This document shows, piece after piece, positions 50,369 through 64,000 of a stretch of DNA of 64,000 nt. How positions within the stretch are numbered: position 1 is the stretch's first letter; every line of letters begins with the position of its first letter. Location: positions 1-64,000 of IMG/VR virus record IMGVR_UViG_3300035696_000020. One strand, given 5' to 3'. The position numbers were made by a program, and so were the translations under genes. Source of the stretch: a virus. Below the pieces are notes generated by a model. That model had not been told where the DNA came from and searched no databases. It worked only from the letters and a program-made list of their open reading frames with translations.

Positions 50369-50443
50369 GCCCGGTTAGTTCAGTGATAGAACGTCTGTTT
50401 TGTACTCAGAATGTCGGGGGTTTGATTCCTCCACCGGGCTCCA
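50369..50443 (+). tRNA. tRNA-Thr(TGT)
   Basis: Cloverleaf, loop TTTGTAC, CCA. Confidence 0.85.
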
Positions 50444-50491
50444 CTGCCGTTGGTCTCCCAACCGATCTGACACGGAGACATCTGGCCCAGC

Positions 50492-50548
50492 ATTCTTGCG
50501 GCTGACGAAGCATCGGAAGATGCAGAAACCGTTCAGGTTCCGCGGAGT
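50492..50548 (+). ncRNA. Candidate type I hammerhead ribozyme
   Basis: GCGG-CTGACGA-a-GCATC/GATGC-a-GAAA-CC/GG-T-T-CCGC. Confidence 0.55.
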
Positions 50549-50589
50549 CCTCCCCGCTGGGGAATAAATGAGGACCTAGGATCGGTATT

Positions 50590-50663
50590 GCTCCCGTAGT
50601 ATAGTGGCATTACATCACTCTGGTACAGTGGTAACGGCTGTCCGATTCAGCCCAGGAGCACCA
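50590..50663 (+). tRNA. tRNA-Thr(GGT)
   Basis: Loop CTGGTAC, ACCA. Confidence 0.8.
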
Positions 50664-50669
50664 TTTCTA

Positions 50670-50752
50670 GGGCCAGTGGTGAAATTGGCGATACACGTCG
50701 GATTTAGATTCCGATGACGCAAGTCGTGGGGGTTCGAGTCCCTCCTGGCCTA
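50670..50752 (+). tRNA. tRNA-Leu(TAG)
   Basis: TCGGA-TTTAGAT-TCCGA, long variable arm, no encoded CCA. Confidence 0.85.
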
Positions 50753-50759
50753 GAAGTTA

Positions 50760-50844
50760 GTCCCGATGATGGAATTGGCAGACATGCGGGCTTCAAATAC
50801 CCGTGCCGAAAGGCGTGCAAGATCGTGGCTTGCTCGGGACACCA
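50760..50844 (+). tRNA. tRNA-Leu(CAA)
   Basis: Loop TTCAAAT, long variable arm, ACCA. Confidence 0.8.
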
Positions 50845-50914
50845 CACCACTTGTAATAGAACCACCGGAACATTACATGAACGGTGTAACGTTTAGAGTC
50901 GGGGGCTTCTGTGA

Positions 50915-51532
50915 ATGTCTACTAGACCAAGGGGGTTGGCTAAGGAAATTCGTGGTCTTCTATTAAGCGGAATGTCATCAGCAGATGTTAGAAGAAAACT
51001 TGGGGTCGGAAAGTCAACCGTTAGTTTCCACGCTCAGAAACTAGGACTTGGCGGGCGCCGTCATAAGAGAGATTGGAGCGATGTCCAGAAATTGCTTGAT
51101 GAGGGGCACACGGCCAGAAAAGTCATGGAACTTAGCGGGGTTAAATCGACTCCGTTTTATCTTGCTGTCAAAAGAGGTAAAATCACAGTCCCAACGAGGG
51201 AACACGCCCATTCTTGGCTAGGTCCAGAAGAACTCTCACAGAGATTGATGGGGAAGTCAGGTCGCGGTCCTCGTTACCGAATGAAGAAAAGGTTGCTAGA
51301 ATGTGGCGTGCTAGAGTACGAATGTAAAATTTGTGGTATTTCAGAGTGGAGGGGCGCACGCATTGATCTGAGGTTGGATCACATTGACGGTGACGGTACT
51401 AATTTTGCCATCGACAATCTTAGATTGTTATGCCCGAATTGTGATAGCCAGCAAGACACTTATTGTCACAAGCACCCAAAATCTAAAAGTAGTATGCGGG
51501 AGTGGTGGAATAGCAAGACACAGCCGCCTTAA
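50915..51532 (+). CDS. HTH + HNH homing endonuclease
   Basis: C..CGI.EW....L.LDHIDG...N....NLRLLCPNC.SQ. Confidence 0.88.
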   Translation: MSTRPRGLAKEIRGLLLSGMSSADVRRKLGVGKSTVSFHAQKLGLGGRRHKRDWSDVQKLLDEGHTARKVMELSGVKSTPFYLAVKRGKITVPTREHAHSWLGPEELSQRLMGKSGRGPRYRMKKRLLECGVLEYECKICGISEWRGARIDLRLDHIDGDGTNFAIDNLRLLCPNCDSQQDTYCHKHPKSKSSMREWWNSKTQPP

Positions 51533-51580
51533 GATCGGCCGACGAAAGTTATGCGGGTTGAAGTCCCGCTTCCCGCACCA
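51496..51580 (+). tRNA. tRNA-Leu(TAA)
   Basis: Loop CTTAAGA, long variable arm, ACCA. Confidence 0.8.
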
Positions 51581-51581
51581 T

Positions 51582-51655
51582 GGGAGATTAGCTTAATAGC
51601 AAAGCGCCTGCTTTACACGCAGGATTCGGCGGGGCAGTACCGTCATCTCCTACCA
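51582..51655 (+). tRNA. tRNA-Val(TAC)
   Basis: CCTGC-TTTACAC-GCAGG, ACCA. Confidence 0.88.
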
Positions 51656-51660
51656 TTTAC

Positions 51661-51733
51661 GCGGTGATAGGTTAGTGGCAAACCATCGCTTCGACATAGC
51701 GAGATCAAGGGTTCGATTCCCTTAACCGCACCA
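51661..51733 (+). tRNA. tRNA-Val(GAC)
   Basis: TCGCT-TCGACAT-AGCGA, ACCA. Confidence 0.85.
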
Positions 51734-51835
51734 CCTTAGCTTTGCTGGCAAAACCGCGTCACTAGGCGCGTACCTAGCTGTAGGGTCATACCAGCCCGCA
51801 CGGGCAAAGATACAGTCAAGGCTATCCATTTTCAC

Positions 51836-51909
51836 GGTCTCGTAGCTCAGTGGCAGAGCCGGCGCTTGATAGGCGTCTGACGCAAGTTCGATTCTTGACG
51901 GGACTACCA
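51836..51909 (+). tRNA. tRNA-Ile(GAT)
   Basis: GGCGC-TTGATAG-GCGTC, ACCA. Confidence 0.85.
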
Positions 51910-52028
51910 ATCACCGTGGCCGCTCGCATGACCGTTCCGAGAGGTAAAAGCAAAGGTCGTTAATCATTGCTGCCACAACTTGAAGGACACCAACGTATGA
52001 GTGACTATCTCAAACGCAGGGGCATTAC

Positions 52029-52111
52029 GGACCCCGAGCGTAGTCAGCCTGGATCGGCCGGGCAATGGGCCTTTAACCCATCCGCATGAAGTTCGAGCCT
52101 TCCGGGGTTCA
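52029..52111 (+). tRNA. Atypical tRNA-Lys(TTT)
   Basis: ATGGG-CCTTTAA-CCCAT; 8 bp acceptor, 4 bp T stem, enlarged D region. Confidence 0.55.
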
Positions 52112-52112
52112 C

Positions 52113-52189
52113 GGGTAACTAGCTTAAATTGGCAGAGCGACGGTCCCTTAAACCGTTAGGTCCCAGATCATGGCTGGGGTTACCCTCCA
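52113..52189 (+). tRNA. tRNA-Lys(CTT)
   Basis: ACGGT-CCCTTAA-ACCGT, CCA. Confidence 0.85.
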
Positions 52190-52224
52190 ACTATCGCGTA
52201 CCTCAAGTACGTCAAAGTTAGAAT

Positions 52225-52299
52225 GCTCCGTTACGCATCTGGTGAGGCGGCACGTCTGTCTAACGTGTGAGAGGGGGTCAGAACCCCTACGGAGCGCCA
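52225..52299 (+). tRNA. tRNA-Asp(GTC)
   Basis: CACGT-CTGTCTA-ACGTG, GCCA. Confidence 0.85.
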
Positions 52300-52390
52300 A
52301 TTATGAAAACCGAGTTCGAATATGTGGCATGGTGGCTGAATGCGCTGATGAAGCCTGCGCCACCTAAGCCTGGGGTGTTTGAGGTGCTAC

Positions 52391-52468
52391 GGTCGTCTAG
52401 CTTAATCGGTAAAAAGCCCGCGCCTCATAAGCGCAGTGATTCAGGTTCGAGCCCTGAGACGACTACCA
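52391..52468 (+). tRNA. tRNA-CAT (Met or Ile2)
   Basis: Loop CTCATAA, ACCA. Confidence 0.85.
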
Positions 52469-52485
52469 CTCTATGAGTTATAGCC

Positions 52486-52836
52486 ATGAAGATCATAGCT
52501 CACCTATTCGAACAGCCTGGGTCGCCATTGATCCGCCTATTTATCCACGATGCACCGCACAGACGGATGCACCGCAAAGTCTTGCAGCAATACCGAGAGT
52601 ACCTGCATAAGGCGATTGCCAAAACAGGGCTAAGGATGCCCTATCTAGGCCCGATTGAGTTATCGATCGTGTATGTCAATCCAACATCGCCGGATATAGG
52701 CAATTTATACAGTTGCACGGAGAGGTGTTTCGATGGCAAAGCCCTTGACCCACCTTATATCTTGGCAGATGATAGCCAGATACAGGTGCTTCACCATGTT
52801 TCGAAGATGTATACAGGTGGGGTGACAGAGAAATAA
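52486..52836 (+). CDS. RusA-like resolvase
   Basis: PD.GNL.....FD.......L.DDSQI. Confidence 0.7.
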   Translation: MKIIAHLFEQPGSPLIRLFIHDAPHRRMHRKVLQQYREYLHKAIAKTGLRMPYLGPIELSIVYVNPTSPDIGNLYSCTERCFDGKALDPPYILADDSQIQVLHHVSKMYTGGVTEK

Positions 52837-52913
52837 CGTAACATAGCTCAACTGAATAGAGCGCAGCCCTCCGAAGGCTGGAGATGCGGGTTTGAGTCCT
52901 GCTGTTACGACCA
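52837..52913 (+). tRNA. tRNA-Arg(CCG)
   Basis: CAGCC-CTCCGAA-GGCTG, ACCA. Confidence 0.88.
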
Positions 52914-52925
52914 ACTTAGGAGGGG

Positions 52926-53708
52926 ATGATGACGGCACGCGAGGTTGCACTAGACAATGAAATCCTGCGCGGGGTTGTCGGTTCGACGGCCCATGGTACG
53001 GCAATCGAAGGCCAAGACGATCGCGACGAAATGGGAGTGTTTATCGAGCCTCCCGAGTACGTGTGTGGTCTGACGCCCTGCGATCATTACATCTATCGGG
53101 ATGCAGCCGAAGGAGAGCGTAGCAAGCCAGGAGATTTAGACTTGACGCTCTACAGCCTGCGCAAGTTCTGCCGGCTAGCGACGCAGGGTAACCCAAGTGT
53201 GATAATTCTTCTATGGCTGCCACAGCATCTCATAGAGAAAACGTTAGGGCTTTCGCTAAAGTTGATGCGGTCTGCCTTCATCAGTAGAGAATCCGGCAAG
53301 CGGTTCCTAGGCTACCTCGTCGCCCAGAAGATGAAGTTGAAAGGCGAGCGCGCCCATACGGTCAATCGGCCTGAATTGGTCGAAAAGTACGGTTACGACA
53401 CAAAGTTTGCGATGCATGCTCTCCGATTGGGGTTCGAAGGCATCCAACTGTTGACGGAACGCCGTCTGTCATTACCAGTCGAAGAGCCTAACCTGACGAC
53501 GCTTCGAGCGGTGCGGAGTGGACAGGTCAAGTTTGCCGAGGCGTTGCAGTTGATCGAGGACGCGGAGATCAAACTTCGTGGCTTGCTCGATAACTTCAAC
53601 GTTGAAGCAGATCGGGATGCAATCAACAGGTTCATGGTCGAGGCTCATCAAGAGCATTGGCAAAAGAATAAGGAAGGGTGGCCGAGTGGCTTAAGGCAGC
53701 AATCTTGA
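52926..53708 (+). CDS. Pol-beta superfamily nucleotidyltransferase (YcgL/RlaP-like)
   Basis: GS.AHG......D.DE.GVF, KF..LA..GNP, GYDTKFAMH..RL. Confidence 0.88.
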   Translation: MMTAREVALDNEILRGVVGSTAHGTAIEGQDDRDEMGVFIEPPEYVCGLTPCDHYIYRDAAEGERSKPGDLDLTLYSLRKFCRLATQGNPSVIILLWLPQHLIEKTLGLSLKLMRSAFISRESGKRFLGYLVAQKMKLKGERAHTVNRPELVEKYGYDTKFAMHALRLGFEGIQLLTERRLSLPVEEPNLTTLRAVRSGQVKFAEALQLIEDAEIKLRGLLDNFNVEADRDAINRFMVEAHQEHWQKNKEGWPSGLRQQS

Positions 53709-53759
53709 AAATTGAAGGCCCGAAAGGGTCCGTGGGTTCAAATCCTACCCCTTCCGCCA
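53672..53759 (+). tRNA. tRNA-Ser(TGA)
   Basis: Loop CTTGAAA, long variable arm, GCCA. Confidence 0.9.
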
Positions 53760-53925
53760 AAATTTATGAGCTTGTGTCCGTGCTTGCCCTTTACGATCCT
53801 GGTTGCAAACAGGGGAGAGGTAGACGGAGTGGTTAGGAGCGATCGTCAGGCATAGTTCCTAGCTCTGTATCTGAGACAGACAAAGAGTGGAGTGATGGCC
53901 CTATACTCAGAACCATCAACTATTA

Positions 53926-54002
53926 TGCGCCGGTGGAGCAGAAGCTAGCTCGTTTGCCTCATAAGCAAAAGGTCGGAGGTGCAAGTCCTTCCCGCGCAAC
54001 CA
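53926..54002 (+). tRNA. tRNA-Met(CAT), fMet-like D arm
   Basis: TTTGC-CTCATAA-GCAAA; GTGGAGCAG..TAGCTC; ACCA. Confidence 0.8.
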
Positions 54003-54005
54003 ATT

Positions 54006-54076
54006 GGGTGAGCCTCTGGGAGGGGCCGGCTCTGTAAAAGCACGCCAGCGGTGTTCGATTCACCGATCACCCACCA
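54006..54076 (+). tRNA. tRNA-Tyr(GTA), short variable arm
   Basis: Loop CTGTAAA, CGGTG-TTCGATT-CACCG, ACCA. Confidence 0.65.
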
Positions 54077-54097
54077 TATGTAAAAAGGACAAAATCA

Positions 54098-54574
54098 TTG
54101 TTTGGAAGAGCCAAAAATACGAAACAAAAAGGTAATGTTGGAATTGGGGTTGCGATATCACATTATCTTTCTGAGATGTGTACCGTATCGATACCAATAA
54201 ATGATAGCCAAGATTACGATTTGGTTGTGGAAAAGGGTGGAATGCTTTTTAAGGTGCAAGTAAAGACAGCGGAAAGTAAAAGCAAAAGCGGTAAAATGTT
54301 TAGGGTTTGGCTATCTGTTCAGGGTGGTAACCGCAAGAAAAACTATATAAGTAAGTTGGGATCAGACTTGATATATGACATTCTATTCGTGGTTACTTCC
54401 GATGGTGAAAGATACGAGATTCCTCGTAGTGCCATCAGCCATATAAATCGCGTTATAGAAGTACCAGGAAAGTACATACAATACCGATGCGGGCGTAGCT
54501 TGACGGTCGAGCATATCAGCGCCACTGATAAGGCCCGGTTTCAATTACCGGCGCCCGCACCAAAAGAAGCCTGA
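54098..54574 (+). CDS. PD-(D/E)XK homing endonuclease (I-Ssp6803I-like)
   Basis: K.KG..G, VSIP..D...YDLVV.......VQVKT. Confidence 0.85.
   Translation: MFGRAKNTKQKGNVGIGVAISHYLSEMCTVSIPINDSQDYDLVVEKGGMLFKVQVKTAESKSKSGKMFRVWLSVQGGNRKKNYISKLGSDLIYDILFVVTSDGERYEIPRSAISHINRVIEVPGKYIQYRCGRSLTVEHISATDKARFQLPAPAPKEA
54489..54562 (+). tRNA. tRNA-Gly(GCC)
   Basis: GCGGGCG acceptor, TATCA-GCGCCAC-TGATA, ACCA. Confidence 0.75.
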
Positions 54575-54644
54575 GAAGATAACTTAGTAGAATCGCCAGA
54601 CTGAAAATCTGGAGGACGCCGGGCGGAACGGCGCTCAGGCACCA
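54569..54644 (+). tRNA. tRNA-Phe(GAA)
   Basis: CCAGA-CTGAAAA-TCTGG, ACCA. Confidence 0.85.
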
Positions 54645-54650
54645 AATTAC

Positions 54651-54725
54651 GGGGGTATAGCTCAATGGCAGAGCCCTCGCCTTGCAAGCGATAGACGGCG
54701 GTTCGACTTCCGCCTGCCTCCACCA
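54651..54725 (+). tRNA. tRNA-Ala(TGC)
   Basis: G3.U70, loop CTTGCAA, ACCA. Confidence 0.9.
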
Positions 54726-54730
54726 AGTTT

Positions 54731-54805
54731 TCCAGGGTCGACTAACGGAAAGTCCCGATGCTGTTAACATCGCCAATGGGTGTTCGAATCACTCCCCTGG
54801 AGCCA
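54731..54805 (+). tRNA. tRNA-Asn(GTT)
   Basis: CGATG-CTGTTAA-CATCG, GCCA. Confidence 0.88.
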
Positions 54806-54809
54806 ATAC

Positions 54810-54883
54810 GCGGCCATCTTCTAACGGTAGGAACCTCGGCTCTCATCCGAGAAACGGGAGATCGTCACTCCCTGGCCGCGCCA
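54810..54883 (+). tRNA. tRNA-Glu(CTC)
   Basis: CTCGG-CTCTCAT-CCGAG, GCCA. Confidence 0.85.
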
Positions 54884-54889
54884 AGTATC

Positions 54890-54966
54890 CCTCCCGTAGC
54901 TCAATGGACAGAGCACCACTCTACGAAAGTGGGTTTGTGCGTGTTCGACTCACGCCGGGAGGTCCA
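54890..54966 (+). tRNA. tRNA-Arg(ACG)
   Basis: CCACT-CTACGAA-AGTGG, CCA. Confidence 0.9.
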
Positions 54967-55053
54967 TTATTTGTGCAATATGTGGGGTTGCGCGGATTGC
55001 TGCGGTGCGGTATAATGCGGATTCGCAATCTCGCGAAGGAAAAAGGACTTGAA

Positions 55054-55167
55054 ATGAGACTGATTTTTGCTATTGTAATGAGCCTTGTTGTTGCGGTGCC
55101 GGCATTTGCGGGGACCAAGCATCAGGTCGATGTGGATGCGCGCGATCGGCACGACAGCCACTTCTAA
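55054..55167 (+). CDS. Small secreted peptide within tRNA array
   Basis: TTGCGC-N17-TATAAT promoter, AAGGA RBS, signal peptide ..PAFA-GTKHQVDVDARDRHDSHF. Confidence 0.55.
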   Translation: MRLIFAIVMSLVVAVPAFAGTKHQVDVDARDRHDSHF

Positions 55168-55175
55168 ACGAATAA

Positions 55176-55254
55176 CTGCCATTAGGGGAGTCTGGCCGTC
55201 CCCGCAACCCTTGGAAGGTTGAAATCCGAGGTTCAAATCCTCGATGGCAGACCA
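55176..55254 (+). tRNA. tRNA-Pro(TGG)
   Basis: CAACC-CTTGGAA-GGTTG, ACCA. Confidence 0.88.
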
Positions 55255-55258
55255 CTAT

Positions 55259-55334
55259 AGGGAATTAGCTCAGTTGGAAGAGCGCCGCTCTCTGAAAGCG
55301 GAGGTGCTTGGATCGAAGCCAAGATTCCCTGCCA
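55259..55334 (+). tRNA. tRNA-Gln(CTG)
   Basis: CCGCT-CTCTGAA-AGCGG, GCCA. Confidence 0.88.
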
Positions 55335-55339
55335 ACAAT

Positions 55340-55413
55340 GACGGCATGGCCGAGCGTCCAGGCTGGTGGCTGCAACCCACCCTAGGCAAGTTAAACTCTT
55401 GCTGCCGTCTCCA
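55340..55413 (+). tRNA. tRNA-Cys(GCA)
   Basis: GGTGG-CTGCAAC-CCACC, TCCA. Confidence 0.88.
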
Positions 55414-55417
55414 ATAT

Positions 55418-55492
55418 GCTCCGGTGGTCCAAAGGATGGTCGCCACTCTTCTAAAGTGGTTTTTTATGCTGGTTCGAGTCCAGCCCGGAGTG
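55418..55492 (+). tRNA. tRNA-Arg(TCT)
   Basis: CCACT-CTTCTAA-AGTGG, no encoded CCA. Confidence 0.85.
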
Positions 55493-55493
55493 C

Positions 55494-55567
55494 GGTCGCG
55501 TAGCCTAGCGGACGAGGCACCCTTCTCCTAAAAGGGATTTACGGATGTTCGACTCATCCCGCGACCT
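55494..55567 (+). tRNA. tRNA-Arg(CCT)
   Basis: CCCTT-CTCCTAA-AAGGG, no encoded CCA. Confidence 0.85.
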
Positions 55568-55576
55568 CTAAATTAC

Positions 55577-55661
55577 GGAAAGTTAAGCCGGCAGGGCCGG
55601 TCCTGCTTTGCTAAAGCAAGGGTGGGCGCAAGTCCATGGGAATCGTGTTCTCAGCTTTCCG
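55577..55661 (+). tRNA. tRNA-Ser(GCT)
   Basis: Loop TTGCTAA, long variable arm, G73. Confidence 0.8.
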
Positions 55662-55662
55662 C

Positions 55663-55736
55663 GCGGGCGTGGCGTAACAGCAACGTACTAGTCTTCCAAA
55701 CTAGGGTCCTCGGGGCAGCACCGAGCGTCCGCACCA
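55663..55736 (+). tRNA. tRNA-Gly(TCC)
   Basis: CTAGT-CTTCCAA-ACTAG, ACCA. Confidence 0.85.
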
Positions 55737-55858
55737 AATTTACCGTTCGGGTTCCCGCTCGGTAAGATCGGCCAAAAGATCGGCCATTGTTCCCGTTCGG
55801 GAATAGCGGTGTCAGAAAGTGATAGGACTAGTCTCCTAAAAGTGCATGAATTTTCAAT

Positions 55859-55935
55859 GGACCCTTCGTCTAGTCGGCCGAGGATACCTGATTTTCACTC
55901 AGGAGACGCGAGATCGTGCCTCGCAGGGTCTACCA
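55859..55935 (+). tRNA. tRNA-Glu(TTC)
   Basis: CCTGA-TTTTCAC-TCAGG, ACCA. Confidence 0.88.
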
Positions 55936-55937
55936 AT

Positions 55938-56010
55938 AGGCAAGTAGCTCAACTGGCAGAGCATTCCGCTTTGAACGGAAAGGTTGGGGTTTCGATCACC
56001 TCCTTGCCTG
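55938..56010 (+). tRNA. tRNA-Gln(TTG)
   Basis: TTCCG-CTTTGAA-CGGAA, no encoded CCA. Confidence 0.85.
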
Positions 56011-56011
56011 C

Positions 56012-56086
56012 GGCGGCAGTTCGGTAGGCGAACAGGTGTTGCTCATAACGACACATAGGCGAGTTCGACCCTCGCAGCCGCTACCA
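56012..56086 (+). tRNA. tRNA-CAT (Met or Ile2), atypical D arm
   Basis: TGTTG-CTCATAA-CGACA, GCGAG-TTCGACC-CTCGC, ACCA. Confidence 0.7.
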
Positions 56087-56091
56087 GTTAC

Positions 56092-56165
56092 GCCATTGTA
56101 GTTTAACGGTAAAACGCCTCGCTGTGGACGAGGAAACCGTGGTTCGACACCACGCCTTGGTGCCA
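56092..56165 (+). tRNA. tRNA-His(GTG)
   Basis: CCTCG-CTGTGGA-CGAGG, GCCA, no G-1. Confidence 0.85.
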
Positions 56166-56171
56166 AAATAT

Positions 56172-56249
56172 AGGGGTGTAGCTTAGCCTGTTCCAAAGCA
56201 CTCGTCTCCAAAACGAGGATCGTGGGTTAAAATCCTACCACCCTTGCCA
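56172..56249 (+). tRNA. tRNA-Trp(CCA)
   Basis: CTCGT-CTCCAAA-ACGAG, GCCA. Confidence 0.88.
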
Positions 56250-58019: not shown

Positions 58020-58406
58020 ATGGCTAAAGGCTTCAAAACAGGTGGGCGTCAGAAGGGAAGTCCCAATAAGATCAAGGCTGTCTCGTCTGGCATGGATGAG
58101 GCAATCAACGAGGCATTTGAGGTCGCGAGTGCTAGTGACGAAACCCCATTGCAGTATATGCTAAGGATCATGCGGGACTCACGGGCTGCGGTCGGTCGCC
58201 GGGACAATATGGCAAAGGCGGCTGCGCAATACCTGCATCCCAAGCTCGTATCGACCGAAACCAAAGACATCACCGAGAAACCGCAGACCGTTGAAGACGC
58301 TTGGTCCCGTGTCTTTGCCCAGATCAACAAAATGGGTCTTCGGCCCGAGGACGTATTCCAGCGGCAGGGCGTAGTTGTGGACGAGGAACGGGGGACTGCG
58401 CACTAA
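58020..58406 (+). CDS. terS: Terminase small subunit (putative)
   Basis: KTGGRQKG.PNK, TPL.YML..MRD, R...AKAAAQY.HPKL; upstream of TerL. Confidence 0.7.
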   Translation: MAKGFKTGGRQKGSPNKIKAVSSGMDEAINEAFEVASASDETPLQYMLRIMRDSRAAVGRRDNMAKAAAQYLHPKLVSTETKDITEKPQTVEDAWSRVFAQINKMGLRPEDVFQRQGVVVDEERGTAH

Positions 58407-58935: not shown

Positions 58936-59147
58936 GCACGTACACTGAACAAAACGCTAAACTGAGATTGTGCCCATTGCTCACTATTGCCAATCGGATG
59001 GCAGATGTCAATGCTGCATCAACGCCTTGTCTAGCCAGTGGTTGTATGATGTGGCGTTGGGATCGTTTCGCTAATAGGATGAGTTCGAGACGCGGAGAGG
59101 ACCGGATTGGTCGATGTGGCCTTTCTGGAGAAGATGAGGGAGACTAA
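58932..59147 (+). CDS. Cys-rich hypothetical protein
   Basis: CPL, CLAS.CM.WRW, G.CGL.G. Confidence 0.7.
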   Translation: MSTYTEQNAKLRLCPLLTIANRMADVNAASTPCLASGCMMWRWDRFANRMSSRRGEDRIGRCGLSGEDEGD

Positions 59148-59148
59148 C

Positions 59149-59364
59149 ATGAAATTCTCGATAATGGATCATAGCGGTCACAGTACCGAGGCGTTCGACA
59201 AGGCGTCGGCCGAATCCTTGGCTGCCGCCCAAGCTCGGTTCGATGAACTGATTGCCGAGGGTCGGACTGCCGCAGTACGGACTGGCGAAGGCTCTGGCCG
59301 AGTGATTAAGGCGTTCGAGCCGGCCGATGAGGTGCTGTTTATCCCGCGTCTCATGGGTGGCTGA
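59149..59364 (+). CDS. Small protein with ubiquitin/ThiS/MoaD-like C-terminal GG
   Basis: GAGGGAG RBS; 71 aa ending DEVLFIPRLMGG*. Confidence 0.7.
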   Translation: MKFSIMDHSGHSTEAFDKASAESLAAAQARFDELIAEGRTAAVRTGEGSGRVIKAFEPADEVLFIPRLMGG

Positions 59365-60429
59365 TTGCCTCTCAACGCTAGGGATATTGCGCTTCGGAGT
59401 GCGGAAGAGGCGTTCTATTCGGTCATTCGTAGTGCTGGGCAAGATCGTCCGCCGTACCTCGACCGCATTGATTATCATAGGAACCACGACAACGGTTCTC
59501 TAGCGTTTGAAGCGCGGTTCCACTCCTATGTAGGCCAATCTGTTCATTGGATGCTGTTTGAGAGATTGGACTACTCTCGGTTTGATCTTGGCGGGTATGT
59601 TCGTGAATGCCATTCGCTCTATTCCCGCCTATACGAAGATCACATGCTACAATTGGAGTTGCAACCAAGACGGGAGGCACTTGAGCGCCTATACCGGATA
59701 ATGGCGCCGGCCCATATGATCGAGAACGCCCGTGAGGACTATAGGCGATTTGAAGAGCACTTACGGCGGCATCACAGTTACGTGCGTCCTGGCTCAGTGT
59801 GGAATGACCCAAATCCGTACTACATCAACCGGACCATACGCGAGATCGAGCCGTTCCGACATGAAGGACCAAGCCAAGTATTCAGGGACGTAGAGGAAAC
59901 GCTACGTCGGTCTCGCAATGCAGTTGAAGCCCAAATGTTTATGGGCAGCGCGACGACCTCCACGACGGCAACCGAACAGCGGACGTTGACGGCTGACAGT
60001 GTACTCCGAGCGTATGAACGTTTTGCGTCCACTCCTAGCTCTTGGAACAATCTTGTAGCCTCAGACCTAACCGAAGCTAGTCTCCAGCGTCTACGTGACT
60101 ATGTTCTAGGCGACTATGCGCCTCAAAATACAGAGGCCGACAAAAAGGGCATCGAACTACTCAAATCCTGGCTGACACCTGACCAACTAGCCCAATACGA
60201 GAAGTCAAAGGCGTTCGAGGTCACAGGTTCGCACACTGGCAAGCGCTACCGAATCAAGCACGGTCGGCAGATGAACATCGAGGAACTTGACAAGAACGGG
60301 AAACGAGTTCAGGGTTTATGTGCACTGCCGATCGGGACGCTTGTGGCCGGCGATTGTGTTCTTGCCCAAAAGCTCGCGATCGAGACCAACGAGAAGCAAT
60401 TCCTAGAGGTTGCAAATAAGTTCGCATGA
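59365..60429 (+). CDS. Hypothetical protein, partner of the GG protein
   Basis: Abuts GG gene; C-terminal LL..WL...Q..QY.....F.V.GS.TG..YRI, LCALP, GD..LAQK.A.E..E..FL..AN. Confidence 0.7.
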   Translation: MPLNARDIALRSAEEAFYSVIRSAGQDRPPYLDRIDYHRNHDNGSLAFEARFHSYVGQSVHWMLFERLDYSRFDLGGYVRECHSLYSRLYEDHMLQLELQPRREALERLYRIMAPAHMIENAREDYRRFEEHLRRHHSYVRPGSVWNDPNPYYINRTIREIEPFRHEGPSQVFRDVEETLRRSRNAVEAQMFMGSATTSTTATEQRTLTADSVLRAYERFASTPSSWNNLVASDLTEASLQRLRDYVLGDYAPQNTEADKKGIELLKSWLTPDQLAQYEKSKAFEVTGSHTGKRYRIKHGRQMNIEELDKNGKRVQGLCALPIGTLVAGDCVLAQKLAIETNEKQFLEVANKFA

Positions 60430-60689
60430 GCATGTTGCAACGCGAGATAAACGGCCTAGTCTCTGAACTTGACTTCGCATCTAAAGATAAGGCGGAATCA
60501 CCACCAACCCGTGATTTGATGCGACGCGCGAAACAGTGCATTGAAGAGCTATTGGGCCACGAACGTAGGGCTAATGAAGTTGCTGATAGGCTGGCTAAAG
60601 TTTTAAGCCTGCAAGCCGAAGCCATTTGCTCCTGTGGCCAGATGCCAAAGTCTCGTTGCGATGGGGCAACGACGTGCCAATTGGGGTAA
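60426..60689 (+). CDS. Hypothetical protein
   Basis: ATGA-coupled ORF. Confidence 0.5.
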   Translation: MSMLQREINGLVSELDFASKDKAESPPTRDLMRRAKQCIEELLGHERRANEVADRLAKVLSLQAEAICSCGQMPKSRCDGATTCQLG

Positions 60690-60693
60690 TATG

Positions 60694-60915
60694 ATGGGAT
60701 GGGCAAGCGGGAGTCGTCTATTTAGTTCAGTGATCGAGGCCGTCAAGCAGACTCGATTGAACGAAACAGAGCGAGAGCATCTTTACGAAAAGCTAATTGA
60801 CGCCTTTGCGGACGCCGACTGGGACACGATGGATGAGTGTCTTGGCGAAGATAGCGCATACGACAAAGCCTATCGGGCGTGGTCAAAGGCACATGGATTT
60901 GACGAAGACGATTGA
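60694..60915 (+). CDS. Hypothetical protein
   Basis: MGWASGS.L...I....LI..F...DWDT..EC...D. Confidence 0.7.
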   Translation: MGWASGSRLFSSVIEAVKQTRLNETEREHLYEKLIDAFADADWDTMDECLGEDSAYDKAYRAWSKAHGFDEDD

Positions 60916-63900
60916 GCCTAATCCCATTTCTCTCTGGCAAGCATAACCCCTCCGATGTCCTGCTTCTCAATGAATACATTGCAGACGCGGAAACCGTAGA
61001 GAACAGGATAAGGTACGAGAACAGCCTAAGCGAGTTCGTAAAGGACGCTTGGCACGCGGTTGACCCGAGTACCTATCAAGAATCTTGGGTTATCGACGCG
61101 GTTTGCGACCACCTGATGGCAGTTTCCACAGGTGATATTAAGCGCTTGCTGGTGAATGTGCCCCCACGCACTGGCAAAACTACCGTGATTTCAATACTTT
61201 ATCCGATGTGGACATGGATACAGCCTAACGCAGACCCAGATGAAGACTTCCTACGTGGTCCGCATGTCCGGTTCCTGTGTGCGAGCTACGATCACTTCCT
61301 TGCCATGGACAACTCGAACAAATCTCGTCGGTTGGTCTATTCGCCTTGGTTCCAGAAATACTGGCCTGACCGGATACATCTACAGGTAGACCAAAACGCT
61401 AAGGCTAAATGGGACAATACGTTCGGAGGGTCGCGGCAGTCTACATCAGTTGCGGGTGGTCTGCTTGGTCGCGGCGGGGATGTTCTGATCGGGGATGATT
61501 TGAATGACACTCAGGTTGAGGGTGGCGAATCTGACGCAGATCGCAAGTCGGTAGCAACGTTCTGGCGTGAGTTCTCGACAACCCGCCTCAACAACCAGCG
61601 GCGCGGTGCGATAATCAACGTTCAACAGAGGACACATACTGGCGACGTTTCTGGTATCATCATGGGCGGTCAAGAGGATTACGTCCAGCTTGTCGTTCCG
61701 ATGCGCTATGATGCAACAAGGCATTGCGTAACCGTAGTTCTACCTCAGTACGATGACGATGAGCCCTGGCAGGACCCTAGGTCTGTCGAAGGCGAACTTA
61801 TGTGGCCTGAACGCTTCAATGATGAAGAGATCAGGCGCATGGAAATCGGCCTCGGCAAGTACATGGCAGCCGGCCGACTTCAACAGCGTCCGGTGCCTGC
61901 GGGCGGTGGCATCATTCAATGGGAGTGGTGGAAGCCGTGGGACCAGATCGAAGCAAGATCATATGGCTTGGAATGGGGTTCGCCGCCCTGTGAGGTCTGT
62001 AACGGCGAGAAGACATACACGACACCATCTGGCCGGCTAAGGCTCTGCCAGCACTGTCAAGGGACAGGTGAAGAGCCTGGGAAGATTCGCAAGGAGTTCC
62101 CGGATTTCGATCTGAGGTTTGCAAGCCTCGATACCGCGTTCGGAGAGAAGGAAGAGAACGACTACTCCGCGCTCACGGTTTGGGGCGTCTGGCTAGACAA
62201 GAACAAGAATCGACGCCTGATGCTGATGTATGCGTGGAATAAGCGATTACCATTGCACGGGAGACAGTTGTCTTTCGATCCTGGCACGTCCGGGGATAAG
62301 GTCCGCAAGGCCCAAGATCAGGAATGGGGACTCGTGGAGCTAGTCGCGGATACCTGCAAGCGGTACAAGGTCCACCGACTATTGATCGAGGATAAGTCGC
62401 GCGGGACCGACGTTTCGAACGAACTGCACCGATTGTATGCCCGTGAGAACTTCGGGATCATGATGATTAACCCAACACGGGATAAGGTCTCGCGGTGTCA
62501 CTCCGTTGTCCCGATGTTTGCGGACAACATGATTTACTGCCCTGAGACTGCGTGGTCGGACAAAGTTCGCGAGCAGATGTCTGAATTTCCTAAAGCAGAT
62601 CACGATGATCTGGTCGATTCATGCCTGACTGGCAGCACTGGCATTGTAACGACACGTGGTATCGTAAGTATTGCGGAAGTAATCTGTGGTGATCTTGTTC
62701 TAACCCATAAGGGTAGGTGGCGCAAAGTTCTTAGGACAGGCTCTAGGATTTCAGATCACTATTATAGAGTCAAGGCTAAGGGCTTAGATCAGATTGAGAT
62801 TACAGGCGAGCATCCGTTTCTAACGATGAGAGTGCGGTGCCCACAGACCGCTGGCAAAGAGTGTGTAGGGACTGCATGGAAAGCTACCAAAGAACTAGTC
62901 GCTAGGCCGACTTATGCCTTCCGCAGGAATGGCAAATTGGTACAATCTCAGCGGCGCGTTAATCACGACGCGCTTGTTATCCCAAGGCTTGCTGGTCAAG
63001 CCAAGGATAGGATTGATCTAGCGGAGGTCTGGGGTGACACTGTTACCCATGACGATCACAAGATTTATCATAAGCGCGCTCCGTTGGGTCGGTTCTCGTT
63101 TAGAGATGCTGAGAATATAATTCTTCTCGCGCAGCACCGTGAGCAAAAAGAAATTGCCGAAATGTACGGCGTTTCAACGGGTATGATATCCCTAATTGTC
63201 AAGGGTAAGGTCGGCCCTCTAAGAGAAAAGCAGCACCAAGATAGTGTTGGTAGATTTATCAGTCTTGATAGAGAGGCAGGATGGGTATTCGGACTCTATG
63301 CGGCAGAGGGTTGTGTAAGTAAACATTCCCAAGTGAAGTGGTCTTGTGATTACGAAGCGATCTCTAGAATCCAGACGTGGATAAATTCAACCTTCGGTAA
63401 AAGCGTTAAGATCACGAAAGGTAACGGTTGTTATTCAGTAGTTCTATCTTCCCTTCTCGTGACTCCAATTTTCATGGAGTTTGGCTATCTAGCCGAGAAT
63501 AAGATAGTGCCGCAATGGGCTCTAGATGCTCCGTTAGACTTCGTCCAGGGCTTTATTGATGGGTATTCTTACGGCGATGGGTGCGCGGTTGGGAACCGCA
63601 TTGCATTGACTTCTACATCTCAATCGTTGCTCTGGGGTGTTAGACTTATGCTGGCCAGATTAGGAATACCCTCTTGGTATCAGATCGATAAGGAAGAAGG
63701 CCCGCGCAAGGTATTTGGTCGAATGTCGGAGTGTCTAGAGGCATACCGGCTTGATTATGCTATCAAGGCGAAGCATAGCGGTGCCGTTGTGAGCGAAGAC
63801 TACATAGGCACTCATATCGAGAAGATTGAGCGCGTCAATGAGAAAGCGATCGTCTACAATCTATCAGTAGAAGAAGATGAGAGCTACGTTACGGTTGGCG

Positions 63901-64000
63901 GGACTGTGCACAACTGCACGCAAGCTCTCAACTGGTTCCGCGAATCTGGTCTAGTGTATCGTGCAGATGAGGCGACTGCGATGGAGGAAGAAGAGGCGAC
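60912..64000 (+). CDS. terL: Terminase large subunit with intein (3'-partial; absent from ORF track)
   Basis: TTG 60912; KRLLVNVPPRTGKT Walker A, GRGGDVLIGDD, TTRLN, QQR.H..D, SLDTAF..KEENDYSA, IEDK, FP...HDDLVD. Confidence 0.93.
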   Translation, partial: MSLIPFLSGKHNPSDVLLLNEYIADAETVENRIRYENSLSEFVKDAWHAVDPSTYQESWVIDAVCDHLMAVSTGDIKRLLVNVPPRTGKTTVISILYPMWTWIQPNADPDEDFLRGPHVRFLCASYDHFLAMDNSNKSRRLVYSPWFQKYWPDRIHLQVDQNAKAKWDNTFGGSRQSTSVAGGLLGRGGDVLIGDDLNDTQVEGGESDADRKSVATFWREFSTTRLNNQRRGAIINVQQRTHTGDVSGIIMGGQEDYVQLVVPMRYDATRHCVTVVLPQYDDDEPWQDPRSVEGELMWPERFNDEEIRRMEIGLGKYMAAGRLQQRPVPAGGGIIQWEWWKPWDQIEARSYGLEWGSPPCEVCNGEKTYTTPSGRLRLCQHCQGTGEEPGKIRKEFPDFDLRFASLDTAFGEKEENDYSALTVWGVWLDKNKNRRLMLMYAWNKRLPLHGRQLSFDPGTSGDKVRKAQDQEWGLVELVADTCKRYKVHRLLIEDKSRGTDVSNELHRLYARENFGIMMINPTRDKVSRCHSVVPMFADNMIYCPETAWSDKVREQMSEFPKADHDDLVDSCLTGSTGIVTTRGIVSIAEVICGDLVLTHKGRWRKVLRTGSRISDHYYRVKAKGLDQIEITGEHPFLTMRVRCPQTAGKECVGTAWKATKELVARPTYAFRRNGKLVQSQRRVNHDALVIPRLAGQAKDRIDLAEVWGDTVTHDDHKIYHKRAPLGRFSFRDAENIILLAQHREQKEIAEMYGVSTGMISLIVKGKVGPLREKQHQDSVGRFISLDREAGWVFGLYAAEGCVSKHSQVKWSCDYEAISRIQTWINSTFGKSVKITKGNGCYSVVLSSLLVTPIFMEFGYLAENKIVPQWALDAPLDFVQGFIDGYSYGDGCAVGNRIALTSTSQSLLWGVRLMLARLGIPSWYQIDKEEGPRKVFGRMSECLEAYRLDYAIKAKHSGAVVSEDYIGTHIEKIERVNEKAIVYNLSVEEDESYVTVGGTVHNCTQALNWFRESGLVYRADEATAMEEEEA
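62622..63914 (+). mobile_element. Intein with LAGLIDADG homing endonuclease (431 aa) in TerL
   Basis: DS|CLTGST, T.EHPF, VFGLYAAEG, FIDGYSYGDG, VYNLSVEEDESY....TVHN|C. Confidence 0.93.

Follow-up and report, generated by a model that had tools for sequence, protein, structure and literature searches.

Two adjacent genes of a phage recorded in IMG/VR, encoding a 71-residue protein that ends in Gly-Gly and a 354-residue partner, form a conserved cassette that is widespread yet undescribed. We are highly confident that their products, one ubiquitin-like (Ubl-like) and the other carrying a Cys domain, are a cognate pair representing a widespread unnamed family, and, with the same high confidence, that phage versions of the partner are tied to the phage's own capsid protein. 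What the analysis demonstrates is conservation, gene linkage, invariant Gly-Gly, Cys and Asp residues, a predicted complex and copies of capsid segments; the pair may constitute a minimal protein-tagging system without an activating enzyme of its own.

The window (the whole 64,000-nucleotide stretch of DNA analysed) covers the initial 64 kb of a virus record of 103,891 bp, IMGVR_UViG_3300035696_000020, which has direct terminal repeats and is estimated to be complete. A first-pass annotation of the window had described a 71-residue protein ending in Gly-Gly with the next gene starting at the following base, which we confirm. The locus is laid out as follows:

59136..59142, + strand: ribosome-binding site GAGGGAG, read from the sequence, 6 nt 5′ of the small-gene ATG.
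59149..59364, + strand: small gene for the 71-residue Ubl-like protein, ending FIPRLMGG-stop (ATG at 59149, TGA at 59362-59364).
59365..60429, + strand: partner gene, 354 residues, its TTG start being the base right after the small-gene stop.
60912-63998 of the window, running beyond the window end: TerL gene with an intein (Terminase_6C, residues 477-571; LAGLIDADG_3, residues 876-935; intein splicing domain, residues 612-1001).

The start of the small gene (MKF...) is conserved and is consistent with homologues of 72 residues, while the 354-residue partner product is identical over its full length to a gene-called public protein (P0001). The earlier placement of the pair between TerS and TerL holds on the 3′ side, where TerL is confirmed and has its Terminase_6C nuclease domain interrupted by the LAGLIDADG intein; on the 5′ side the product of 58020-58406 is only tentatively a TerS, with a match to PHROG 641 (E 3.5e-5) that covers part of the protein. 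Two small ORFs of 87 and 93 residues fill positions 60426-60915 between the pair and TerL. The 87-residue ORF is translationally coupled to the partner, whose stop overlaps the ATG of this next ORF (ATGA, 60426-60429), and the 93-residue ORF matches PHROG 11183 (unknown function; E 4e-6); neither of them accompanies the pair in other loci. A scan for promoters and terminators gave background-level signals only.

The small protein has 19 close relatives, and a profile built from these finds 780 clusters at 50% identity. Among the 132 family representatives (the 50%-identity set with matches extending precisely to the last residue), 126 terminate in GG, five in AG and one in VG, so that a terminal Gly is present in 132/132 and the stop codon always follows it. 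This terminal Gly-Gly is far beyond chance, and the conservation proposed as a check in the first-pass annotation is thus borne out. It is kept in all 13 of the divergent phage copies, down to approximately 30% identity, and a free Gly-Gly lies exactly at the C-terminus in 75 of 78 bacterial copies. The exceptions with extensions look like frameshifts, and the longer or fused forms of the small protein all proved to result from over-called N-termini or from frameshifts; no fusion to an E1 enzyme or to a JAB peptidase was present among the longer forms searched. One metagenomic protein of 228 residues (P0268) joins the small protein by read-through to the partner domain, which leaves the Gly-Gly internal, and has Ser in place of the otherwise invariant Cys; it may be an artefact of assembly or an inactive variant that occurs naturally.

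In its predicted fold the small protein looks like a Ubl of the ThiS/MoaD type with the strand order of a beta-grasp: its AF2 model runs strand-strand-helix-strand-strand-strand, at low confidence (pLDDT 61.7). The family tail, E-E-T-L-F-F-P-R-L-x-G-G, resembles the MoaD tail D-E-I-A-F-F-P-P-x-x-G-G, and an hhalign comparison with ThiS/MoaD sequences of five genomes aligned the last 14 columns only (P 1.7e-4, probability 50%). The fold matches of the model include a MoaD structure (2q5w_D) and the MoaD/ThiS-like Mth1743; Foldseek searches of the PDB returned nothing at E<=0.001 for the small-protein or the partner model. No match to the PF02597 profile was obtained, nor any other Pfam match at E<=10, for the window protein or 115 relatives. 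The likeness to MoaD, ThiS and other Ubls suggested by the first-pass annotation thus stands as regards predicted strand order, terminal Gly and MoaD-like tail, but does not extend to a match with the PF02597 family.

Linkage of the two genes is near-universal, as had been suggested for checking. The cassette is found at 15 IMG/VR loci, which represent 13 distinct contigs of uncultured phages, and in each distinct locus having upstream sequence (13/13) the small gene lies directly 5′ of the gene for the partner's C-terminal domain. A scan of species-representative genomes found at least 472 loci with the cassette; the best 80 of these are nearly all from Bradyrhizobium, Hyphomicrobiaceae or other Alphaproteobacteria. 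For 78 of the 82 bacterial domain matches in those best 80 loci the small gene is directly upstream, and in approximately 58 of the 82 the partner is short, extending scarcely beyond the domain. The bacterial neighbours are ordinary chromosomal genes (encoding a histidine kinase, an SDR, a glycosyltransferase, NAPRTase, DctP and a flagellar rod protein); no third conserved gene occurs in the 80 bacterial neighbourhoods or in the phage loci, and apart from the pair itself no neighbour in the IMG/VR loci is shared with this window. One Bradyrhizobium genome (G003, which holds loci L053 and L065) has approximately four copies of the small gene, one of them frameshifted, and a second genome (G004) has two, one with an internal TAG stop; such multi-copy and partly decayed cassettes point to the turnover that is typical of accessory cassettes. 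A divergent arrangement occurs on a 167-kb viral contig (L003:5992-7104), where a small gene ending in GG is followed by two tandem, overlapping genes for the Cys/Asp domain, both of which retain the Cys and Asp and lack the Asn discussed below.

Neither protein matches a family in Pfam, PHROGs or NCBIfam; sequence profiles of the PDB gave nothing meaningful, and the ESM Atlas returned only unnamed Pseudomonadota clusters of 117-135 residues, with scores of no more than 0.88. We found no paper describing the module.

There are 93 relatives of the partner with a comparable length, and similarity peaks in the last ~100 residues; this region remains 50-65% identical even where the rest of the protein diverges. 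Its AF2 model (mean pLDDT 79.9) has three parts, the middle one being a poorly ordered, low-confidence linker of residues ~142-254. The two predicted folded domains and the invariant positions are:

59365..59784, + strand: N-terminal folded domain, residues 1-140, modelled as a helix, three strands and a long helical hairpin, with a YSRLYEDH motif (pLDDT ~83-98).
60133..60426, + strand: C-terminal domain, residues 257-354, modelled very confidently by AF2 as two helices, a four-strand meander, a Cys loop and two helices; the predicted docking site for the small protein.
60319..60321, + strand: codon of the invariant Cys319, in LCALP at the end of strand 4; found in 97/97 domain copies, among which L002 and L003 diverge most.
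60352..60354, + strand: codon of the invariant Asp330, in GDC; present in 97/97 domain copies.

The N-terminal domain is conserved only in the phage forms and the long bacterial forms, and gave no convincing fold match. The LCALP and GDCVLAQKL motifs noted earlier in the C-terminal domain are both present, and of the two cysteines it is that of LCALP (Cys319) which is conserved; the Cys331 position, in GDC, is occupied by Val, Ile or Cys in other copies. A further residue, Asn304, is near-invariant (95/96) within a Q-M-N-I motif 15 residues N-terminal to Cys319. The first-pass annotation had considered the partner Cys as a thioester or protease nucleophile; we dropped the reading of the partner as a Cys-His-Asp protease, there being no invariant His.

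We regard an E2-like fold of the C-terminal domain as a lead, not a result. The UBC fold comprises an N-terminal helix, a four-strand meander, a Cys loop and a crossover helix. Cys319, at the end of strand 4, would correspond to the invariant catalytic Cys of E2/UBC domains, and weak matches to E2/UEV proteins were among those returned for the partner model, in a search of the whole model in which the helical hairpin of residues 70-147 filled most rows so that the C-terminal domain was barely sampled. No His-Pro-Asn (HPN) motif precedes Cys319, and hhalign of the domain against Prok-E2_A gave no signal (0.3%). The partner and 92 relatives match no family in Pfam or NCBIfam, MoaE included.

Co-folding of the C-terminal domain with the small protein, using separate alignments, supports binding between the two: the predicted complex scored an ipSAE of 0.77 against 0.01 for the best control, and the complex prediction advised in the first-pass annotation thus puts the LCALP Cys at the predicted docking site of the Gly-Gly tail. 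Of 80 solved complexes 58 attained this level, as did two of 110 mismatched pairs, a calibration that is rough since the alignments used here were our own. Co-fold runs share at least 95% of contacts, with a partner pLDDT of at least 87. The score could be inflated by the likeness of the pair to complexes of E2~Ub or MoaD already solved, which the predictor may have memorised. On the small-protein side the predicted interface comprises residues 4, 6-11, 40-52 and 63-71, a face which in the model matches the Leu8 loop, the Ile44 patch and the tail of ubiquitin; on the partner side it comprises residues 319-327, 330 and 333-351. Tail residues 65-69 are predicted to pair with partner residues 320-323, and residues 68-71 lie beside 319-323, which would bring the Gly-Gly end next to Cys319, while Asp330 is predicted to touch residues 6 and 65 of the small protein.

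A further feature of phage partners, missed by the first-pass annotation, is their relation to the capsid. The major capsid protein of this phage is encoded by a 308-residue ORF at genome positions 81245-82171, which matches PHROG 371 and shares 59% identity with an annotated major capsid protein and 38% with the capsid protein of Pelagibacter phage HTVC023P. Two pieces in the middle region of the partner are similar to it:

59761..59814, + strand: capsid-derived piece 1, residues 133-150 (...YVRPGSVWNDPN), similar to residues 212-229 of the phage's own major capsid protein (...ELRPGTAMNDPN).
59914..60084, + strand: capsid-derived piece 2, residues 184-240, in the low-confidence linker, similar to residues 112-175 of the phage's own major capsid protein.

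The three best local alignment scores between partner and capsid protein sum to 124, against 84.1 +/- 7.6 for shuffled sequences (maximum 111 of 300), and the capsid ORF is the sole outlier among the 98 ORFs of the phage (z 6.0; next ORF 2.6). The best single local alignment is not distinctive (51, against 49-50 for other ORFs), and only the summed pieces stand out. Piece 1 is also found in two homologues (P0003 and P0047), of which P0003 has a 22-residue copy of the C-terminal strand of this phage's capsid protein (z ~10). In a second phage (G002) the partner likewise picks out the phage's own capsid ORF (z 5.1), and another homologue (P0019) has two clear copies of the G002 capsid protein (z 20). 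A third phage (G001, locus L009) has no capsid similarity in its partner, being one of three phages tested in full, and the long bacterial forms have none within their 8-kb flanks. The pieces are permuted in the partner relative to the capsid protein, which indicates that they are copied segments; a decayed capsid paralogue is excluded by this permuted order. As bacterial copies are without capsid pieces, the core function is not specific to the capsid.

The absence of E1/ThiF and JAB genes remarked on in the first-pass annotation holds for the whole 103,891-bp phage record, in which neither ThiF (PF00899) nor Prok-JAB (PF14464) had a match, and no E1 or JAB lies near the pair at any of ~90 loci. 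This sets the pair apart from the systems which it most resembles. Like Ubls of the ThiS/MoaD/TtuB/SAMP/Urm1 type (PF02597), the small protein is of approximately 70 residues, has a predicted beta-grasp strand order and would be made mature with a free Gly-Gly; its F-F-P-x-x-x-G-G tail is like that of MoaD, and the partner gene is immediately 3′ of it, as MoaE follows MoaD. However, only the last 14 columns align with those proteins, with no match at the HMM level; the N-terminal motif MD-x-T-G-[HD], conserved in the small protein, is foreign to ThiS/MoaD; and the pair comes without an E1, MoaE, ThiG or TtuA partner. Similarly, a terminal-Gly Ubl beside a small Cys-bearing alpha/beta domain, in a phage-related context, recalls Bil (BilABCD), Bub, CBASS Cap2/Cap3 and the bacterial Ubl operon classes 6a-6e of Iyer et al. 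2006 (PMC1779556), but those systems are defined by an E1 in the operon, usually with a JAB peptidase, and the pair has neither; nor does its Cys domain have their HPN motif or similarity to the Prok-E2_A profile. The capsid-derived pieces invite comparison with the DarA and Hdf proteins of P1, which are proteins of the inner capsid surface (PMC12810830), and with the internal proteins of T4. A capsid-targeting sequence is used in T4, whereas here segments of the capsid protein itself have been copied; and, unlike DarA/Hdf and the T4 proteins, the pair has a conserved core that also occurs in bacterial chromosomes with no capsid link.

We tentatively propose, at somewhat less than even confidence, that the two proteins are a Ubl and its thiol carrier, charged by a host E1, with a thioester on Cys319, and, in phages, addressed to capsids. 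The small protein would be a beta-grasp Ubl of the ThiS/MoaD type, produced mature with its C-terminal Gly-Gly free, and its C-terminus would be adenylated by a MoeB/ThiF-type E1; we infer that the E1 is supplied by the host because both the phage and the bacterial cassettes bring none. Against the proposal, no E1 is encoded close to the pair at any locus, so that activation is an assumption. The Ubl would dock by its ubiquitin-like Leu8/Ile44/tail face on the ~100-residue C-terminal domain of the partner, bringing the Gly-Gly beside Cys319 and Asp330, and the activated end would then pass to Cys319 as a thioester, making this domain a minimal E2-like carrier. From Cys319 the Ubl would be handed to a target, and in the phage case we infer that this is capsid-related. 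Phage partners appear to have gained the N-terminal domain and the flexible stretch with capsid copies, which could act as an address: capsid subunits or procapsids would be what is tagged, or else would provide the way into the virion. The boldest form of this proposal, in which a host MoeB/ThiF E1 charges the phage Ubl and the 100-residue E2-like carrier, steered by its capsid copies, attaches it covalently to capsid subunits of the phage itself or of a rival, we consider distinctly unlikely.

The main rival is that the pair is non-covalent and works in the manner of a toxin-antitoxin or inhibitor-type pair: the Gly-Gly tail of the small protein would plug a Cys/Asp active site in the partner, and unplugging, for example by a capsid protein, would free the enzyme. 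A large predicted interface could alone explain the conserved residues, and in the model the tail does lie over the invariant Cys and Asp; a small upstream gene is tightly coupled to a larger downstream one, the copies in Bradyrhizobium genomes lie dispersed in unrelated surroundings and include decayed ones, and phages carry the same cassette. Antitoxins, however, do not as a rule need an exact Gly stop, such as is kept throughout the family, and the tail resembles that of MoaD carriers; no DNA-binding family or domain was detected in the small protein, and PADLOC gave no match for the partner family. We therefore hold this plug-type reading to be rather unlikely, though it is the foremost competitor of the Ubl and thiol-carrier proposal.

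That MoaD-like tail, on a product which is mature with no protease required, would equally suit a sulphur carrier, for which a host MoeB/ThiF and a sulphurtransferase would thiocarboxylate the small protein and sulphur would be delivered at Cys319, as in the MoaD-MoaE, ThiS-ThiG and TtuB-TtuA pairs. The context without E2, E3 or JAB and the appearance of 2q5w_D and Mth1743 among the fold matches are consistent with this, but the partner domain matches no MoaE, ThiG, PP-loop or rhodanese family, several scattered copies per genome would be unusual for a biosynthetic pair, and capsid pieces would be out of place in a pathway of cofactor synthesis or tRNA thiolation, so that we think it very improbable. 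Capsid pieces could instead be of use to a phage decoy, an idea raised in the first-pass annotation, in which the pair jams Ubl-type immunity (Bil, CBASS Cap2/Cap3): copies of the phage's own capsid could be bait for host systems which sense or tag capsids, and the predicted Ubl-like and E2-like shapes could compete with a host E1 or E2. Nevertheless, most members of the family are short bacterial chromosomal forms without capsid pieces, predominantly of the Bradyrhizobium type, a distribution not readily expected of a decoy specific to phages; the neighbourhoods examined had no link to Bil or CBASS, tblastn of both proteins against 50,697 GenBank phage records gave no match, and we found no paper in support. 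There is little chance, in our judgement, that the decoy reading is right. The observation behind the first-pass annotation is confirmed, and is stronger than the sequence alone could reveal; its interpretation is partly supported.

If the chemistry of the Ubl and thiol-carrier proposal is right, no smaller Ubl transfer unit would be known than these two proteins without an E1, E3 or peptidase of their own; the boldest form of the proposal, if true, would represent both an E1-less Ubl system and a new kind of modification of capsids in bacteria. The pair is common in soil alphaproteobacteria and their phages, and raises the testable question of whether housekeeping sulphur-carrier E1 enzymes feed protein tagging in bacteria. 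From the capsid-derived pieces it would seem that phages could send an enzyme to capsid subunits through copies of parts of the capsid protein. Even if the pairing is non-covalent, it defines a large unnamed family with a testable invariant Gly-Gly/Cys/Asp site.

Two further features of this phage lie near its packaging and capsid genes. Just 5′ of the packaging module, 26 tRNA genes are arrayed along the + strand (window 50369-56249), among them three for tRNA-Met and five for tRNA-Arg. Directly 3′ of the major capsid gene, at genome positions 82319-83410 (L097:18319-19410), is a gene encoding a 363-residue fusion of HNH and endonuclease VII domains, which is probably a homing endonuclease.
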